Shown: piece by piece, positions 40,660-47,108 of the stretch
How the letters are laid out: every line of letters starts with the position of its first letter
How positions within the stretch are numbered: the first letter of the stretch is position 1
Assembly: GCA_049510745.1 (NCBI GenBank)
Contig: JBEKYR010000016.1
Coordinates: forward strand, 28,743-92,742
Direction: 5' to 3'
DNA from: Verrucomicrobiota bacterium
GTDB taxonomy: Bacteria > Verrucomicrobiota > Verrucomicrobiia > Limisphaerales > Palsa-1400
DNA length: 64,000 nucleotides
Notes under the pieces: model-generated
Told to the model about the DNA's origin: nothing
Seen by the model: the letters and a program-made list of their open reading frames with translations, nothing else
Database searches by the model: none
Made by a program: the position numbers and the translations under genes

Positions 40660-41301
40660 GTGCGCGTGAGGGAAACGATTGCCCATTTGATTCAATGGTA
40701 CCAGGGCGCGCTCGATTCCGGCGGCTATCCGCTGGTCGCGCTGCTGATGACGCTGGAGAGCAGCGTTCTGCCGGTGCCGAGCGAGGCGATCATCCCGCTG
40801 GCCGCCCAACGGGCGCATGCCGGCGGCCATTTGAGCCTGACGGGCGTGGTGCTGGCGGGGACACTGGGGTCGTGGGTGGGCGCGACGATCGTTTATTGGG
40901 CGGCGCGCCTGATGGGCCGTCCGCTGCTCCTGCGCTACGGGCGCTACGCGCGGGTGACGGAGGAAAAACTGCAGGCGGCGGAGCGGTGGTCGCGTCGGTT
41001 CGGCTCCTTTGGGGTGCTGGCGGGCCGGTTGCTGCCGGGGGTGCGGCAGACCATCGGCCTGCCGATGGGCATTGTCAAGATGGATTACTGGCTCTACGCG
41101 CTCTTCACCGTCATCGGCTCGGGCCTCTGGTGCGTTGTGCTGGCCTGGGTGGGCGTGGCCGCCGGCAACGACCCCAAGCTGATGGCGGGAGACGTGCGCC
41201 ATCTGACCCTCTGGCTGCTCGGCGCCTTGGCCGTCCTGGGGCTGCTCTATTATTTCCTGGTCCACCGCTACATCAAGCCCGACCCGGCGAAAGAAGTTTG
41301 A
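40660..41301 (+). CDS. DedA family membrane protein
   Basis: LESSVLPVPSE, GRLLPGVRQ, PMGI. Confidence 0.9.
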   Translation: MRVRETIAHLIQWYQGALDSGGYPLVALLMTLESSVLPVPSEAIIPLAAQRAHAGGHLSLTGVVLAGTLGSWVGATIVYWAARLMGRPLLLRYGRYARVTEEKLQAAERWSRRFGSFGVLAGRLLPGVRQTIGLPMGIVKMDYWLYALFTVIGSGLWCVVLAWVGVAAGNDPKLMAGDVRHLTLWLLGALAVLGLLYYFLVHRYIKPDPAKEV

Positions 41302-41333
41302 ACTTCAATCCATAAACTTTAAACTGGCGCGGC

Positions 41334-44300
41334 ATGACTTCGGCCGAAATCCGACAATCGTTCCTGGATTTTTTCAAATCCAAGGGGCACACCATCGTCC
41401 CTTCGTCAAGTCTAATGCCCGATTCGCCCGGTTTGCTGTTCACCAACGCCGGGATGAATCAATTCGTCCCCATCTTCCTCAACGAGCGCGCCCCCGACGT
41501 GGATAAATGGCCCGGCGCCATTGCGGGCAAGCCGACGCGCGCCGCCGACACGCAGAAGTGCATCCGCGCCGGCGGCAAACACAACGACCTGGAAGATGTC
41601 GGCCTGGACACCTATCACCACACCTTTTTCGAGATGCTCGGCAATTGGAGCTTTGGAGATTATTTCAAAAAGGAAGCGATTGATTGGGCGTGGGAACTGG
41701 TTGTAGAGAAATGGAAATTCCCGCCGCACCGCCTCTACGCCACCGTGTATAACCCCGACAAATCAAAAAACGATCCGAGCGATTTTGACCAGGATGCCTA
41801 CGGTTTTTGGGCGGCGAAGTTCAGCGCCGCCGGCCTCGACCCGAAAGTCCACGTCGTTCATGGCGGCAAGAAAGACAACTTCTGGATGATGGGCGAAACC
41901 GGCCCGTGCGGCCCCTGCTCGGAAATCCACGTCGATTTGACTCCCGCCGGCGACACCAATGGCTCGCTCGTCAACAAAGGCGACGCCCGTTGCATCGAGA
42001 TTTGGAACCTCGTCTTCATCCAATTCAACGCCAACGCGGACGGGACATTTTCGCCCCTGCCCGCCCGGCACGTCGATACGGGCATGGGCTTCGAGCGGGT
42101 GACGGGCATCATGCAGAACACGAAGAATTTCACCGACTTCATGCGCGTCATCTCCAATTACGAAACAGACATTTTCCGTCCGCTTTTCGACAAGCTGGAA
42201 AAACTGAGCGGCAAAAAATACGGCTCGACGCTGCCCGGGGAGGACACGCGCCCCCGCGTGTTGCAATCGCCGCCCCCGGCGATTGCCACCACATCCATCC
42301 CTGGCACAACCGAACCCAAGTACTCCCGCCGCAATCTCCCTCATTTCGAGCGCCCCTGGGCCAAATACATGGTCACATTTTCCACCAAAGAGCGTCGGCA
42401 ACTCACTCCGGCAGAGCGCGGAATCGTATTGGAGAGTGTTCTGTGCGCGTCCAGACAGAGGCAGTATCAGCTCTATGCTGCTTGCGTCATGCCCGACCAC
42501 GTGCATCTATTGTTCGAACCACAGATCAAGGGGGAAGATCAAGGTGGCAAGTCGATTTTCTGGTCGTTAAGCGAGATTCTGCAGGGCATCAAATCTGCAA
42601 GCTCTCACAACATAAGTAAGGCGTCGGGACGAAAGGGGCATGTTTGGGAGGCGGAATCCATGGACCGGATGATTCGGGGCGAGTCCGATTTGGAGGAGAA
42701 ATTTCACTATATTTGCCGAAATCCGTGGGATTCAGGTGTCGTCCCGCCAACGGAGGATTATCCCTGGCTATGGGTTCCTGAAATGGAAATGCCTGCTCCC
42801 GAAAACGCTGGCGAGAGACGGACTGCGGGGGCGCAGTCCGACGCACGCGAGGGCGCGTGCGCTCCCCACTCGCATTCCGAACAGATTCAAATCGACATCG
42901 CTTTCCGCGTCATCGCAGACCACATTCGCACGCTCAGCTTCTCCATCGCCGATGGAATTTTGCCGGGCAACAACGACCGCAACTACGTCTTGCGCCGCAT
43001 CCTCCGCCGCGCCGTGCGCTATGGCCGCACACTCGGTTTTCACGAACCGTTTTTCTATAAATTGGTGGAAGTCCTCGCTGAAACAATGGGGGACGTATTT
43101 CCAGAACTTCGTAATAAGCAGTCGCATGTCCAGGATGTGATAAAAGCCGAGGAGGAGGCATTCAACAAGACGTTGGATAAGGGGATCGCATTATTTGAGT
43201 CAGGAGCACAGCAGGATCAAATTAATTGGCATTGGAAACAGCTTGATGCGGCAATTAAGGAAGTTCTCAGTGACAAGTCTAGCACACCAAGAATTCTTGC
43301 TAACGACTTGAAATCTATTGCGGCAACCGGAGAACTTGTTTGGCCTGAAGTTTCAAACGTTCGCCAACTCACGAACACCTTCGGTTCACTTGAAGAGCGC
43401 GCGTTTATCAAGCGTCTTTATGAGTTTGCCAATGACTTAACTCTCGCGACAGTAACAGACGATTTTGAATCTCTACTTCCAGAGGCTGAAATTATTGAAG
43501 ACCTCGCTAGACGGATTTCAGCTTCCGCAGCCAGTGAACGAAAACAAGGCGTCGTTCCGGGCGGTTTTGCATTTACCCTTTACGACACTTACGGCTTCCC
43601 TCTCGACCTCACCGAGTTAATGGCGCGTGAACGCGGGCTGACCGTGGACACTGCAGGCTTTGAAAAACTTATGGACGAGCAGCGCGCCCGCGCCCGCGCC
43701 GCCCAGAAAAAGGAAATCGTCGCCGCCTCGAATGTTGATACGTCGCGTCCGACCGATTTCGTCGGGTTCGACCGCCTGCGCGCCGACGCCACCGTCCTGG
43801 ATGCTGTCAACATCAAGGACAAAATCGCCGTCACGCTCGACGCTTCGCCCCTCTACGCCGAGATGGGCGGACAGGTCGGCGACACCGGCGAGATTTCCGC
43901 CGGCGGAAAAATCTGGCGCATTGTCAATACTCAGAAAGTCGGCAACACCTTCCTTCATTTTCTGGCGGAGAAGGACGCCCCGGAGCCGGGCGCGAAAGTG
44001 GAGATTCGCGTGAACGTCCCGCGCCGCGCCGCCATTCAACGGCACCACTCGGTCACGCACTTGCTGCACTGGGCGTTGCACGAGGTCGTCAGCGCCGACG
44101 CCACCCAAAAAGGCTCCTACGTCGGGCCGGACAAGTTGACTTTCGATTTCAGCAGCGCGGCGCTCACGCCGGCGCAGGTCGGCGACGTGGAAAAACTGGT
44201 CAACGAACGGATTCTCGAAAACGCCGGCATCGCCTGGACCGAGGTTGCGTATGCCGAGGTCAAAGGCCGGAAGGATGTCATGCAGTTTTTCGGCGAGAAG

Positions 44301-45002
44301 TACGGCGACATCGTTCGCGTGGTGCAGATTGGCGGAAAGGCGGGCGCGTTGGACGGCTACTCGATGGAACTTTGCGGCGGCACTCACACGCGGGCGACGG
44401 GCGAGGTCGGATTATTCCGGATTCTGAGCGAGGGGGCGGTGGCGGCGGGCATCCGGCGCATCGAGGCCGTGGCCGGATTGCGCGCTTATGAAGTGTCCAA
44501 GGAAGAAGCCGCGTTGATTTCGACTGTGGCCGGGAAGGTCAATTCACCGGCGGCCGAGTTGGAAAAGAAAGTCGATTCGCTCCTGGCGCAGCAGAAGGAG
44601 TTGGAAAAACAGCTTCAGGCCATGCGCCAAAAACAGGCGGCGGAACTGGCGCGCGGTTTGGTGGCCCGCGCGGACAAATCCGGCCCGGCGCCCAGCATTG
44701 TCGAGCATCTCGGCGCGGCGGATGCGGATTTTCTGCAAGCCGTGGCCGACGCGATCAAAAGCCAGTTCAAAGGCGTGATCGTTCTCGGTGGCACAGCCGG
44801 CAACGCCGTGGCCCTGGTCGCAGCCGTCTCGCCGGAGTTCACCGCCAAGTTTCAGGCCGGGAAGATTATTCAAGCCATCGCGCCGATTGTCGGCGGCAAA
44901 GGCGGCGGCAAACCCGACAACGCCCGCGGCGGCGGCAAGGACGTGTCGAAGGTGGACGAGGCGTTGGCCAAGGCAAAAGCGTTAATTTGCCCGAATCCTT
45001 AG
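41334..45002 (+). CDS. alaS: alanine--tRNA ligase with two in-frame insertions
   Basis: FTNAGMNQF, HHTFFEMLGNWSFGDYFK, EIWNLVF, DTGMGFER, IADHIR, YVLRRILRR, LYDTYGFP, editing motifs HSVTH and CGGTH, GGKGGG. Uninterrupted 1222-aa ORF. Confidence 0.97.
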   Translation: MTSAEIRQSFLDFFKSKGHTIVPSSSLMPDSPGLLFTNAGMNQFVPIFLNERAPDVDKWPGAIAGKPTRAADTQKCIRAGGKHNDLEDVGLDTYHHTFFEMLGNWSFGDYFKKEAIDWAWELVVEKWKFPPHRLYATVYNPDKSKNDPSDFDQDAYGFWAAKFSAAGLDPKVHVVHGGKKDNFWMMGETGPCGPCSEIHVDLTPAGDTNGSLVNKGDARCIEIWNLVFIQFNANADGTFSPLPARHVDTGMGFERVTGIMQNTKNFTDFMRVISNYETDIFRPLFDKLEKLSGKKYGSTLPGEDTRPRVLQSPPPAIATTSIPGTTEPKYSRRNLPHFERPWAKYMVTFSTKERRQLTPAERGIVLESVLCASRQRQYQLYAACVMPDHVHLLFEPQIKGEDQGGKSIFWSLSEILQGIKSASSHNISKASGRKGHVWEAESMDRMIRGESDLEEKFHYICRNPWDSGVVPPTEDYPWLWVPEMEMPAPENAGERRTAGAQSDAREGACAPHSHSEQIQIDIAFRVIADHIRTLSFSIADGILPGNNDRNYVLRRILRRAVRYGRTLGFHEPFFYKLVEVLAETMGDVFPELRNKQSHVQDVIKAEEEAFNKTLDKGIALFESGAQQDQINWHWKQLDAAIKEVLSDKSSTPRILANDLKSIAATGELVWPEVSNVRQLTNTFGSLEERAFIKRLYEFANDLTLATVTDDFESLLPEAEIIEDLARRISASAASERKQGVVPGGFAFTLYDTYGFPLDLTELMARERGLTVDTAGFEKLMDEQRARARAAQKKEIVAASNVDTSRPTDFVGFDRLRADATVLDAVNIKDKIAVTLDASPLYAEMGGQVGDTGEISAGGKIWRIVNTQKVGNTFLHFLAEKDAPEPGAKVEIRVNVPRRAAIQRHHSVTHLLHWALHEVVSADATQKGSYVGPDKLTFDFSSAALTPAQVGDVEKLVNERILENAGIAWTEVAYAEVKGRKDVMQFFGEKYGDIVRVVQIGGKAGALDGYSMELCGGTHTRATGEVGLFRILSEGAVAAGIRRIEAVAGLRAYEVSKEEAALISTVAGKVNSPAAELEKKVDSLLAQQKELEKQLQAMRQKQAAELARGLVARADKSGPAPSIVEHLGAADADFLQAVADAIKSQFKGVIVLGGTAGNAVALVAAVSPEFTAKFQAGKIIQAIAPIVGGKGGGKPDNARGGGKDVSKVDEALAKAKALICPNP
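42238..42286. repeat. left end: REP-like palindrome plus hairpin
   Basis: GGGAGG-ACACGCG-CCCC-CGCGTGT-T, then a perfect 10-bp hairpin GCAATCGCCG-CCCC-CGGCGATTGC (42263-42286). Confidence 0.85.
42819..42866. repeat. right end: hairpin plus inverted REP-like palindrome
   Basis: Perfect 9-bp hairpin CGGACTGCG-GGGG-CGCAGTCCG (42819-42840), then CGCACGCG-AGGG-CGCGTGCG-CTCCC (42842-42866), whose reverse complement matches the left REP at 20/25 positions. Confidence 0.85.
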
Positions 45003-45110
45003 GCGAGATTGGGGAAAGATCCGGGCCAATCGCACCGAATACCAGTGGCATCCCCGGCCCGCAGTCAATGCGGGAATCCGGGCGGGAATCGCTCGTCCGC
45101 AAACCACGGG

Positions 45111-47108
45111 CTATTTGGATGTGGCGCGGGCGGCCTGGTCAGGCAGGCCGGCCGGGTTTCCGATCAGCGCCCTGGCCTCGCGCAACAGCGCGCGGGAGAT
45201 GATCCAATCGTGCCAGTCGCCGTTGTCAACTTCTCCCTGGTCGATCTTCGGCATTTGGGAATCCATGACTGCGACGGCTTTGTCCAGCGATGCTCGCGCC
45301 TCATCGGGCTGCTTGAGTTGGAATTGAGCCATGGCCAGGACAAGGTTGGCACTGGAGCGGATATATGGATTTTGCTGACTCGCAGGCGCCTTCAATAATT
45401 CCGTCGCGTTGGCGAAGCGGCCTTGCCGATACTCGGCCAGTCCGTCGTTCAACTGAAAATACGGAAGGTAAACATTGTCTTTTCCCTTGGTGACGGCCAG
45501 GCCGGCCAACTTCGAAACGGCGGCAAGGTCCACTCCGGAATAGGCCGTAGCCAGGCAACTCTTGGACATGCGTTCCGCAACCATCGGATCGGTCGTCCCG
45601 CCAAACCGGGTCAGTATGTTTGCGCAAAGGCGCTGGTAGGCGTCCTGGTCGTTGCATTGGACCAGCAACGTTGCGAGACGAAGGTAGTCAAGATGCTCGT
45701 CCGGTGTCAGCGCAATCACACGGGAGAAGTCTGCCGCGGCGTCTTTCCAGCGGCCGCGTCTGGCCAGAAACTGACCACGGGCGCGCAAAAGATCAGCGCT
45801 ACTGGTTTGGCTGACAACCTCGGGGGTCAGGATGGTCCCAAAGAGTTTCTCAGCGTCATCGGTTTTCTTCTCGCCAGCGAGGACGTCGGCCAGTATCTGC
45901 ACGGTTGCCGCCCAGCGGGCGGAATTGGTTTCCCAAAGTTTCTGTTCCAGCGCCAGCTCTTCGCGCAAGGCCGCCTCGGCCTCGGCCAGCTTGCCTTCGT
46001 TCCGGAACGCCTCAGCTTGCCTGTGAAGAACATCTGGTTTGTTGGTGCCCTTTTTGTAACCCTCCAGCGTCTTCTCATATTCCTGTTTGCGTCCGCCCTC
46101 CGCAAGACCGGCTGCCTGCTCTTCCACGGCTATCGCCCGGTCCTGCTTTCCTTCCATGAACAAAGCGCAGGCCAATGTATCCAGAATGTCAGGATTCTGG
46201 CTCTTGGAAGCCTCGACAGCGCGGGTGGCAATTTTTTCGGCCAGCGCCAAATCGGGTTTTTCAATCGTCACGTCGCTGACCATGGTCCAGGCCAGATCAT
46301 TCCCCAAGGCGGAGTTCTCCGGGTGCGCATCACTCAATTGGCCGGCGAGCTTGAACGCGGCCTCGTAGTCCTTTTTTCCGAGGAGCAGGTTGAAGCGCGG
46401 CTCACCCAGCTCGAACCGCTGGTCCTCCGGCGTCAACTTCTCAATCTCGTCGATTTTGGCGACGGCTTCATCCCACTTCTTTTCGTTGCGCGCGGCCCGG
46501 TAATCCTTCCAAAGCGCGCCCAAACGCGCCTGATTTTGAATCTGCCGGGCGTAATCCGCGGCGGCTTTATCGGTGTCGAACTTACCCGCCAGCACATCGT
46601 CAATGACCGACTCCTTCAATTCCATGGGATGGCCGATCCACGCGATGCGTCCATCCTTGCCGATGAGGAAGGCCGACGGAATGCCGTTGCGGCCCGCCGC
46701 CGCCATCCAAGTCTGGGACATGACCCCTTTCTCGTTGGTCTTCTTGTCATCCAAGGCGACGCGGTAAGTCATCTTGTCCCCCATCTTCTGGACGAAAGGC
46801 GCGACCAATTCATCGTCCCGCTCCCAGCAATCCTGGCCGACGACCACCAGGCCCTTGTCTTTGTATTTGACGTAAATTTCGTTCAGGTGCGGAATGGAGA
46901 CGCGGCAGGGGCCGCACCAGGTGGCCCAAAACTCGACGATGTAGGCCTTGTCAGGATCGAAGCCCGTGACCGGGTCGCCTTGAATCCATTGGCCATTTTG
47001 AATTTTTGGGGCGCGGTCACCCACTTTGACGGTGGGCTCGTCTGCGAAAAGCGCGGGGCCGGAAACCAACGCCAGCACCAACACTCCAGAAAAGATTCGT
47101 GGTTTCAT
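45111..47108 (-). CDS. secreted TlpA/redoxin-family disulfide reductase with TPR repeats
   Basis: Signal peptide; KVGDRAP, EFWATWCGPC, GIPSAFLI, WIGHP; TPR-like helices (NDLAW, ILDTLA, RGRWKDAAADF). Confidence 0.85.
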   Translation of the reverse strand: MKPRIFSGVLVLALVSGPALFADEPTVKVGDRAPKIQNGQWIQGDPVTGFDPDKAYIVEFWATWCGPCRVSIPHLNEIYVKYKDKGLVVVGQDCWERDDELVAPFVQKMGDKMTYRVALDDKKTNEKGVMSQTWMAAAGRNGIPSAFLIGKDGRIAWIGHPMELKESVIDDVLAGKFDTDKAAADYARQIQNQARLGALWKDYRAARNEKKWDEAVAKIDEIEKLTPEDQRFELGEPRFNLLLGKKDYEAAFKLAGQLSDAHPENSALGNDLAWTMVSDVTIEKPDLALAEKIATRAVEASKSQNPDILDTLACALFMEGKQDRAIAVEEQAAGLAEGGRKQEYEKTLEGYKKGTNKPDVLHRQAEAFRNEGKLAEAEAALREELALEQKLWETNSARWAATVQILADVLAGEKKTDDAEKLFGTILTPEVVSQTSSADLLRARGQFLARRGRWKDAAADFSRVIALTPDEHLDYLRLATLLVQCNDQDAYQRLCANILTRFGGTTDPMVAERMSKSCLATAYSGVDLAAVSKLAGLAVTKGKDNVYLPYFQLNDGLAEYRQGRFANATELLKAPASQQNPYIRSSANLVLAMAQFQLKQPDEARASLDKAVAVMDSQMPKIDQGEVDNGDWHDWIISRALLREARALIGNPAGLPDQAARATSK

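Follow-up and report, generated by a model that had tools for sequence, protein, structure and literature searches.

The window analysed here is a stretch of 64,000 nucleotides (nt) from a Verrucomicrobiota bacterium (assembly GCA_049510745.1, contig JBEKYR010000016.1), and it contains alaS, the gene for alanyl-tRNA synthetase (AlaRS), with an insert of about 630 nt in its coding sequence. The two ends of this insert are probably the terminal repetitive extragenic palindromic (REP) units of a REPtron, a cassette in which REPs flank a REP-associated tyrosine transposase (RAYT), and this cassette occupies, in frame, a loop of the single alaS gene of the genome. The features on which this reading is built are given below, with positions counted along the window.

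41334..45002, plus strand: alaS open reading frame of 1222 amino acids (aa), with the Pfam domains tRNA-synt_2c (E = 1.2e-175), tRNA_SAD and DHHA1
42237..42866, plus strand: REP-RAYT-REP cassette of about 630 nt (REP-to-REP span 42238-42866)
42234..42341, plus strand: left peptide linker (GEDTRPRVLQSPPPAIATTSIPGTTEPK...), its first part encoded by the left REP unit
42238-42242, plus strand: left tag GGGAG, 5′ of hairpin 1, in the position equivalent to the GTAG guide of classical REPs
42244-42261, plus strand: left hairpin 1 (the REP proper), 7-bp stem ACACGCG/CGCGTGT, loop CCCC
42263-42286, plus strand: left hairpin 2, 10-bp stem GCAATCGCCG/CGGCGATTGC, loop CCCC
42342..42767, plus strand: RAYT (Y1 HUH transposase) domain, AlaRS residues about 337-478
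42498-42506, plus strand: HUH motif H389/H391 (PDHVHLL), aligned with PEHMHCIW of 4ER8
42708-42710, plus strand: catalytic tyrosine Y459 (FHYICRNPW), aligned with YIYINP of 4ER8
42777..42875, plus strand: right peptide linker (...PEMEMPAPENAGERRTAGAQSDAREGACAPHSHS), its last part encoded by the right REP unit
42819-42840, plus strand: right hairpin 2′, 9-bp stem CGGACTGCG/CGCAGTCCG, loop GGGG
42842-42861, plus strand: right hairpin 1′, 8-bp stem CGCACGCG/CGCGTGCG, loop AGGG
42862-42866, plus strand: CTCCC, directly 3′ of right hairpin 1′
42842-42866, minus strand: right REP, inverted, reading GGGAG-C-GCACGCG-CCCT-CGCGTGC

The two ends are organised as mirror images. The left end consists of GGGAG-G, hairpin 1, a single T and hairpin 2, and the right end runs through hairpin 2′, a single A, hairpin 1′ and CTCCC. 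When the left REP (42238-42262) is compared with the right one, 20 of 25 bases are alike as reverse complement and 7 of 25 as direct copy. An earlier note on this DNA, made from its letters, had described two inverted REPs with this degree of likeness and two inner hairpins, and all four structures were found where it had placed them. Folded as single-stranded DNA (ssDNA), each end forms exactly two hairpins, with energies of -21.9 (left) and -24.8 kcal/mol (right) against mean energies of -9.9 and -13.3 for shuffled sequences (z = -5.96 and -5.97), and 0 of 200 shuffles were equally stable. The opposite strand of both ends shows the same folding behaviour. The end hairpins are not followed by a T-tract, and the boundaries of the element are accurate to within a few bases. 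Compared with the 62 REPs detected in the genome, the hairpin-2 stems of both ends are unique.

These structured ends double as coding sequence, as the note had proposed. Both are free of stop codons in the alaS frame, where they are read as linkers with the peptides ...STLPGEDTRPRVLQSPPPAIATT... (left) and ...GERRTAGAQSDAREGACAPHSHSEQ... (right); the translation of the 1222-codon open reading frame at the two ends is GEDTRPRVLQSPPPAI and RTAGAQSDAREGACAP, and the insert as a whole starts with G-E-D and ends with ...H-S-H-S. On direct reading, REPs of such composition are stop-free in all six frames. A scan of 41000-45300 for promoters and terminators placed no site within the insert, and the counts were at the level of shuffled sequence. 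In an AlphaFold2 (AF2) model of residues 1-620, built on an alignment of 52 rows, the linker residues 294-338 and 482-514 have values below 50 in the predicted local distance difference test (pLDDT), and the RAYT core between them reaches 81-92. This is consistent with the REP-encoded stretches being flexible, probably disordered linkers. The model is poor overall (mean pLDDT 59.1, predicted template modelling score 0.38) and confident only for the RAYT core and part of the catalytic domain; it was used solely for linker confidence and is silent on the placement of the domain on AlaRS.

The NCBIfam equivalog model NF047646, whose cut-off is 80 bits, gives the domain between the linkers a score of 83.4 bits in an alignment that takes in model positions 4-145 of 146, and the domain is also matched by the Pfam family Y1_Tnp. 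Its best solved relative is the Escherichia coli TnpA-REP (PDB 4ER8, E = 4.6e-4). The HUH motif and the catalytic tyrosine, which stands in a Y-x-x-x-N-P context, are invariant in the 10 orthologues of the window's order described below and in 52 aligned AlaRS-RAYT proteins. Pairwise comparison of these 10 orthologues (45 pairs) shows throughout a proportion of nonsynonymous differences (pN) far below that of synonymous differences (pS), with synonymous sites mostly saturated. Eight Y1_Tnp loci are present in the genome, and the one in alaS alone is flanked by GGGAG-tagged hairpins. Two other identities for the insert were tried and rejected. The model for TnpA of IS200/IS605, NF033573, gives 22.9 bits against a cut-off of 55, and tblastn finds one close genomic copy; an intein was rejected since the Pfam matches of the 1222-aa protein include no Hint or intein family. 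The genome (G000) also carries a second, distant RAYT at G000:C20:77053-77836, which is 22.7% identical, free-standing and flanked by inverted hairpins tagged GGTAGGG, and this locus is a classical REPtron of the GTAG type.

The host gene is present as a single locus in the assembly, which is 94% complete (tblastn), and alaS gave a single match per genome in 40 of 41 relatives. The insertion is apparent from a comparison with G001, a genome of the same genus with an empty site: 654 nt separate the codons for STLP and IDIAFRV in the window, against 27 nt in G001, where the site reads STLP-NGSAS-EQIQIDIAFRV, so that the alaS of the window is longer by 627 nt or 209 codons. Alignment with solved AlaRS structures stops at residue 303 and restarts at 520; where human AlaRS has a loop of 4 residues (5KNN 283/288) between its domains for aminoacylation and tRNA recognition, the window's protein has the insert. 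AlaRS-N evolves with an omega of 0.03-0.23, and the alaS open frames of 40 related genomes of the order range from 899 to 1336 codons. A pyrimidine-rich flank lies 5′ of GGGGAGC, and at its empty site G001 has GCTCCC, which resembles the tail of the element itself. The window's DNA was found in 20 sequencing runs, all of them peat or wetland metagenomes searched as assembled contigs and none of them RNA. The filled form of alaS is real and recurrent, because contigs from three other samples (X6, X8 and X10, which were not flagged as possible sources) span both junctions with zero differences.

Other loops of alaS also hold inserts. The window's gene carries a second in-frame insertion of about 115 residues (43194-43538, after LDKGIALFE), with neither REP-like hairpins nor a Pfam family, in a loop that we call site 2 and that is occupied by a RAYT cassette in other lineages. 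A third loop, after NTWLHF, holds short in-frame inserts in the alaS loci L004, L005 and L008 (G016, G026 and G039), which resemble translated REP units (e.g. GVPPASVGVSPTESS...ARDARQGDRDGR) and come without a transposase. At L015 (G024), which is empty at the window's site, the 27-nt linker GGAAGCGCGGTTTCCCC... matches the first 12 bases of the type B REP described below at 10 of 12 positions, and may be the scar of a lost cassette.

The end motif is far from unique, and its numbers go with the presence of the transposase, on both of which the reading of the ends in the earlier note depended. The 24-mer GGGAGCGCACGCGCCCTCGCGTGC singled out there occurs 3, 20, 26 and 33 times in the 5.6-Mb genome at 0, 1, 2 and 3 mismatches, and a reversed, non-complemented control gave 0 occurrences at each level. 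A search by structure (GGGAG, one base, a perfect 7-bp stem and a loop of 3-4 nt) recovered 62 family copies with 9 different hairpin-1 stems, among them GCGGGCG (17 copies), ACACGCG (15), GCACGCG (14) and GCGGTCG (8); the stem of the left end is thus shared by 15 and that of the right end by 14 of the genomic REPs. A second palindromic segment follows 1-3 bases downstream in 62 of 62 copies by eye, without having been a search criterion, and a perfect second hairpin of 8-11 bp is present in 47 of the 62, with 19 stems, as compared to 19 of 12,400 shuffled tails. The REP with its extra hairpin is the standard bipartite unit of the family, because the second hairpin recurs after the genomic copies. 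Some units form inverted doublets of 137 nt that are REPIN-like and have the same order as the alaS insert, from tag, hairpin 1 and hairpin 2 to hairpin 2′, hairpin 1′ and tag. They are embedded in a repeat of about 210 nt found in at least 10 places at 91-99%, mostly 95-98%, identity (e.g. G000:C9:43842-43978); several copies of this repeat lie at contig ends, where it breaks the assembly.

The abundance of each REP type was also compared between genomes with and without a matching RAYT. Type A REPs number 85 and 29 in the carriers G008 and G014, and 1, 0 and 2 in the non-carriers G001, G010 and G024, with 0 for the reversed-pattern controls. Type B REPs number 42, 18 and 9 in three of the four carriers tested, G002, G017 and G016, and follow the RAYT less cleanly, as described below. 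REP counts that track the RAYT in this way are the usual signature of a working REP-RAYT pair, and the finding is an association, not proof. The question of how many REPs lie in frame within genes, also raised in the note, had a different outcome. The genome contains 35 open frames that span REPs with at least 40 codons on both sides, and in the 20 distinct spanning frames of at least 200 aa besides alaS, Pfam identified no gene with domains on both sides of the REP: 15 lack any Pfam match, and in the other 5 a domain is confined to the downstream side of the REP. Besides alaS, therefore, no gene was shown to hold REPs internally.

Homologous inserts retain the hairpins. Among 41 genomes of the window's order, 10 (the window's included) have a close RAYT homologue in alaS, with 47-100% identity, and all 10 copies lie inside an open frame of more than 1000 codons that is free of stops. 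Nine are at the window's loop and the one in G036 is at a second loop. Tandem hairpins mark both ends of each of the ten inserts. They fall into three kinds whose stems are unrelated, and the three kinds correspond to three RAYT clades: A (G000, G008 and G014), B (G016, G017, G002 and G026) and C (G019, G039 and G036). The type C ends of some relatives read GGTAGC or GGTGGC. The survey was widened to a species-representative collection with 492 confirmed relatives, the best 80 loci of which hold 87 RAYT copies. At least one perfect G+C-rich hairpin lies within 150 nt on both sides of 76 of the 82 copies with complete flanks, and at least two on both sides of 42 of the 82; in host coding sequence 450-600 nt away, used as control, hairpins on both sides were found in 2 of 73. 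The mean number of hairpins per flank is 1.8, against 0.17 in the control. In flanks from other species the outermost hairpin is preceded by the heptamer GGGGAGC in 51 of 81 cases on the left and 52 of 80 on the right.

Covariation was assessed in ends selected for the tag and a perfectly paired hairpin 1, 63 of 82 on the left and 64 of 82 on the right, together with the window's two, which amount to 127 distinct sequences. Across 128 aligned ends GGGA does not vary, and the G that follows it is at least 90% conserved. A perfect hairpin 2 of at least 7 bp is found in 99 of the 127 ends, compared to 36 of 12,700 shuffles, and it is made from 60 different stems, with 3-4 types of Watson-Crick pair at each of pairs 4-8. 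Compensatory changes are evident between orthologous ends: the window's left hairpin 2, GCAATCGCCG, corresponds to GCAATCGGCG in L073 and L081 with a flip from G:C to C:G, and its right hairpin 2′, CGGACTGCG, to CCGACTGCG in L078, L084 and L074, again with pairing kept. The encoded peptides vary between these ends and the pairing is constant. In these alignments pairing in hairpin 2 is conserved and sequence is not, and the covariation favours structure as the conserved property, as the note had suspected from the differing inner stems.

The embedded form is common in sequence records. Given a candidate collection based on words and the length windows that were searched, on both of which such counts depend, the protein database yielded 1433 proteins of 672-2139 aa with an internal RAYT of this type and 466 shorter matches of 89-284 aa, several of which are fragments of the embedded form. 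The best 120 long proteins comprise 114 AlaRS, 3 methionine synthases (MetH) and 3 threonyl-tRNA synthetases (ThrRS), some with two copies. The records are labelled Verrucomicrobiota, Limisphaerales, Pedosphaera and Chthoniobacterales, and embedded proteins are automatically annotated as ‘alanyl-tRNA synthetase/REP element-mobilizing transposase RayT’. Hosts of the 87 copies in the best 80 loci are AlaRS (57), MetH (14), ThrRS (11), RecG (1) and short frames (4), so that 83 of the 87 (about 95%) are internal to, or fused to part of, AlaRS, MetH, ThrRS or RecG. AlaRS hosts the cassette at three or more loops. In-frame RAYTs are also held by PriA, RecG, a DinG-like helicase and an unnamed protein of about 1400 aa (L047, L048, L044, L051, L049 and L050); L051, L049 and L050 belong to a more distant RAYT subgroup with an extra N-terminal segment. 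In a phylum-wide sample a close homologue was present in 4 of 300 other genomes, and all 4 were embedded. Free-standing relatives start with ...GSARASRA... and end with ...TAREARALP, and because they too read through their REPs, a stop-free frame from REP to REP is a property of the clade.

The history of the RAYT is not that of its host. The RAYT tree is in disagreement with host relationships, and the copies from AlaRS (at three loops), ThrRS and MetH and the free-standing ones are interleaved in it. Between G000 and G019, AlaRS-N has a pN of 0.05 and the RAYT one of 0.33; the reverse holds for G019 and G039, with 0.087 for the RAYT and 0.14 for AlaRS. Going by the genus labels of the genome set, clades A (G008 and G014) and C (G019) occupy the same loop within genus g7, and genus g1 contains clade A (the window), clade B (G002) and an empty site (G001). 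Two groups of loci differ from the rest. At the MetH loci L115, L129 and L132 an N-terminal MetH module is joined to the RAYT and a stop follows 6-26 codons after it, with the remainder of MetH as a separate downstream frame in L115; it seems that the cassette has split the host gene, or that the frame is broken. L081, L091, L096, L105 and L129 come from bins named Acidobacteriota, Bifidobacterium or Nitrospirota and hold Verrucomicrobia-like AlaRS-RAYT or MetH-RAYT; they are probably mis-binned contigs and not cases of spread across phyla.

The mechanism that we propose starts from the DNA. The GGGAG tag and two short G+C-rich hairpins would, as folded ssDNA, be the type of substrate that RAYT-type HUH/Tyr transposases bind and cut. 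A TnpA-REP is described in PMC8266576 as binding, in vitro, a hairpin with its 5′ tetranucleotide and cleaving a nearby dinucleotide. The cassette would be transcribed and translated with alaS because it has no start or stop codon of its own, the transposase would be made as an internal domain of AlaRS and the REP units would become flexible, probably disordered linkers. The embedded transposase would maintain the roughly 60 REP and REPIN copies of the genome and, on an evolutionary time scale, move the whole cassette between permissive loops of housekeeping genes. The ends would accordingly be under double selection, by the host to stay stop-free and in frame and by the transposase to stay paired with an intact tag, and the reason for their upkeep would be that both recognition and the occasional movement of the cassette require them. 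Residence in an essential gene may in turn protect the cassette, because only a precise, in-frame loss would be viable. The earlier note had held that the ends remain under selection as transposase substrates. The comparisons support the ends as REP units of the family served by this RAYT, through the 62 genomic copies, the 76 of 82 flanks, the covariation with its compensatory flips, the invariant catalytic residues and the REP counts that follow the RAYT; from sequence we infer that AlaRS and RAYT are made as one protein, that the transposase in it works and that these ends are cleaved.

Several observations weigh against this interpretation. The tag is GGGAG and not the experimentally shown GTAG guide, so that cleavage sites are only guessed. 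In the covariation set hairpin 1 is paired by the selection of the ends and only hairpin 2 is an unbiased test, and related copies are not independent of each other. Perfect hairpins could be refreshed by gene conversion from other REPs, which is argued against here because the window's hairpin-2 stems are unique in the genome. The 7 other Y1_Tnp loci could in principle serve these REPs, although none of them is flanked by them. REP counts do not follow the RAYT everywhere: type B REPs number 1 in the carrier G026 and 5 in the non-carrier G001, and the type C hairpin of G019 occurs only at its own alaS flanks and is not dispersed in that genome, is absent from G039 and matches two other sites of G036 with 2 mismatches, in a search with a single fixed pattern that is a poor probe where stems vary.

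It is unlikely that the cassette is a relic, trapped long ago and now inert, with hairpins that persist by youth or gene conversion and a frame kept by the essentiality of alaS. Frame constraint alone does account for the absence of stops, but an inert element is difficult to reconcile with invariant catalytic residues, with a pN far below pS over saturated synonymous divergence and with hairpin-2 stems that are unique among 62 yet perfectly paired and differ from orthologous ends by compensatory flips. REP families that are abundant only alongside a matching RAYT, as in the type A counts, and REPIN copies of 95-98% identity, suggestive of recent spread, further oppose it. Domestication of the RAYT for a role in AlaRS, be it regulation, nucleic-acid binding or localisation, with the hairpins as a by-product, is quite improbable as well. 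The strong conservation of the RAYT domain and the commonness of the arrangement, with AlaRS as 114 of the 120 best-scoring long proteins, would be expected from such a role. The distribution, however, is patchy, with an empty site in the same genus and alaS carriers in 10 of 41 genomes (the window's counted); three RAYT clades have been exchanged at one site, three AlaRS loops are used, and the domain is also found in ThrRS, MetH, RecG and PriA and free-standing. In addition, the DNA hairpins and the tag are conserved, whereas the encoded peptides are not.

Removal of the cassette before translation, through pairing of the REPs or excision by the RAYT at the level of ssDNA or mRNA, would restore an AlaRS of normal length, and the note had proposed that the two REPs could pair to loop out the insert. 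In its favour, the ends are inverted copies that agree at 20 of 25 positions, and precise excision of elements in the form of ssDNA circles is established for HUH transposases of the IS200/IS605 type (PMC8266576). The fold of 42230-42875 nevertheless gives four local hairpins in both the minimum free energy (MFE) and centroid structures, with no left-right helix, and as a whole the insert has no more structure than shuffled sequence (z = -0.24), so that the proposal is not supported. Assembled contigs from 4 metagenome runs, in which rare variants do not appear, were aligned to 41900-43200 at 90% likeness and contained no trustworthy contig that skips the junctions. Two of the five joints observed there (42261>42843 and 42275>42843) skip most of the insert and could be taken for excision, but with 24-25 letters on the shorter side they look like REP-REP matches from elsewhere; joints of this kind usually come from repeats, and REPINs elsewhere would yield them. 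Both junctions are intact in the contigs of the three other samples. A removed insert would not need stop-free linkers, yet all 10 alaS copies and the 1433 proteins are stop-free, and since every homologue examined keeps its frame open across both ends, translation of the insert is favoured over its removal; we consider removal very improbable. Even less credence can be given to separate expression, in which the RAYT would be translated from an internal start and the fusion protein would be incidental. The left tag GGGAGG resembles a Shine-Dalgarno sequence (GGAGG at 42239-42243), an in-frame GTG/TTG is found at 42258-42263, with the GTG at 42258, and free-standing relatives exist. The spacing of about 14 nt, the position of the GTG inside the hairpin-1 stem and the lack of a promoter-like site in the scanned insert are all unfavourable, and the free-standing relatives start upstream of the left REP, not within it. 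With no stop after the RAYT, the product would moreover keep the C-terminal 700 residues of AlaRS. The in-frame REPtron, translated with its host, is preferred to all of these.

RAYTs are usually described as vertically inherited and are regarded as domesticated, single-copy, stand-alone genes, and REPs are extragenic by name, whereas here a whole REPtron would be coding sequence of an essential enzyme. About 50 nt would have to serve two readers, the transposase, which requires the tag and paired stems, and the ribosome, which requires an open frame and a tolerable linker, and the ends of the alaS insert are a natural test case for such dual coding. The arrangement may also account for the expression of a transposase that lacks a promoter and a start codon, and for its persistence, and it raises the hypothesis of an HUH transposase working as an internal domain of a tRNA synthetase. 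One may speculate further, at about even odds, that a translated-through cassette adapted to essential genes is a distinct way of life of bacterial transposons: without expression signals or stop, with dual-coded termini and a transposase that works tethered inside AlaRS, ThrRS, MetH, RecG or PriA, moving between permissive loops and between species, protected because imprecise deletion kills the host, and in effect filling the niche of an intein that does not splice. In a full-text literature search, with subscription journals and supplements outside its scope, no report was found of a RAYT that resides within a tRNA synthetase gene or another housekeeping gene. Large surveys of Y1 transposases (PMC6006769) dropped ‘unexpectedly long proteins’ as fusions or annotation errors, and such discarding would hide the embedded RAYT group.

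Among the closest known systems are the REPtrons, including E. coli YafM (4ER8) and the systems of Stenotrophomonas and Marinomonas (PMC8266576). Common ground is a Y1 HUH transposase with HUH motif and tyrosine, two inverted flanking copies of a short hairpin with a conserved 5′ tag, a hairpin family dispersed in the genome and partly arranged in inverted doublets (REPINs), and one cognate copy per genome, with REP presence tracking RAYT presence. The alaS cassette differs in lacking its own start, stop and promoter, in being an in-frame part of an essential gene and in having its REPs translated. Its tag is GGGAG(C), neither GTAG nor CGTC, each of its REP units is a double hairpin, and the RAYT phylogeny disagrees with that of the host.

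Palindromic repeats within genes provide a second comparison. The study of Di Nocera et al. 2013 (PMC3733652) describes intragenic REPs as in-frame palindromic repeats that add 20-80 residues to genes that are probably functional, reports them in the verrucomicrobium Opitutus terrae and in Rickettsia with enrichment in replication and repair genes, and notes RAYT genes whose flanking REPs overlap the open reading frame. The ends of the alaS insert are alike in being palindromes of a dispersed family, in frame in a conserved gene, at a site that is empty in G001 and most relatives. Those elements, and the palindromic elements of Rickettsia reportedly described by Ogata et al., are repeats without a transposase, whereas here an autonomous unit that bears a transposase is the in-frame passenger, and alaS is the only gene of the window's genome shown to have internal REPs.

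Elements of the IS200/IS605 family likewise combine a Y1 HUH transposase with subterminal hairpins that are recognised in ssDNA form and have guide tetranucleotides on their 5′ side; the alaS cassette, in contrast, is single copy and its ends are inverted copies of one REP and not distinct left and right ends. With inteins it has in common the way of residence, as a selfish element in frame at a conserved position of an essential housekeeping gene, translated with the host, patchy among close relatives and exchanged horizontally at the same site. Unlike an intein it shows no Hint or splicing domain among its Pfam matches and lacks a homing endonuclease; the mature protein apparently retains the insert, and the mobility of the cassette would come from an ssDNA transposase acting on DNA hairpins.

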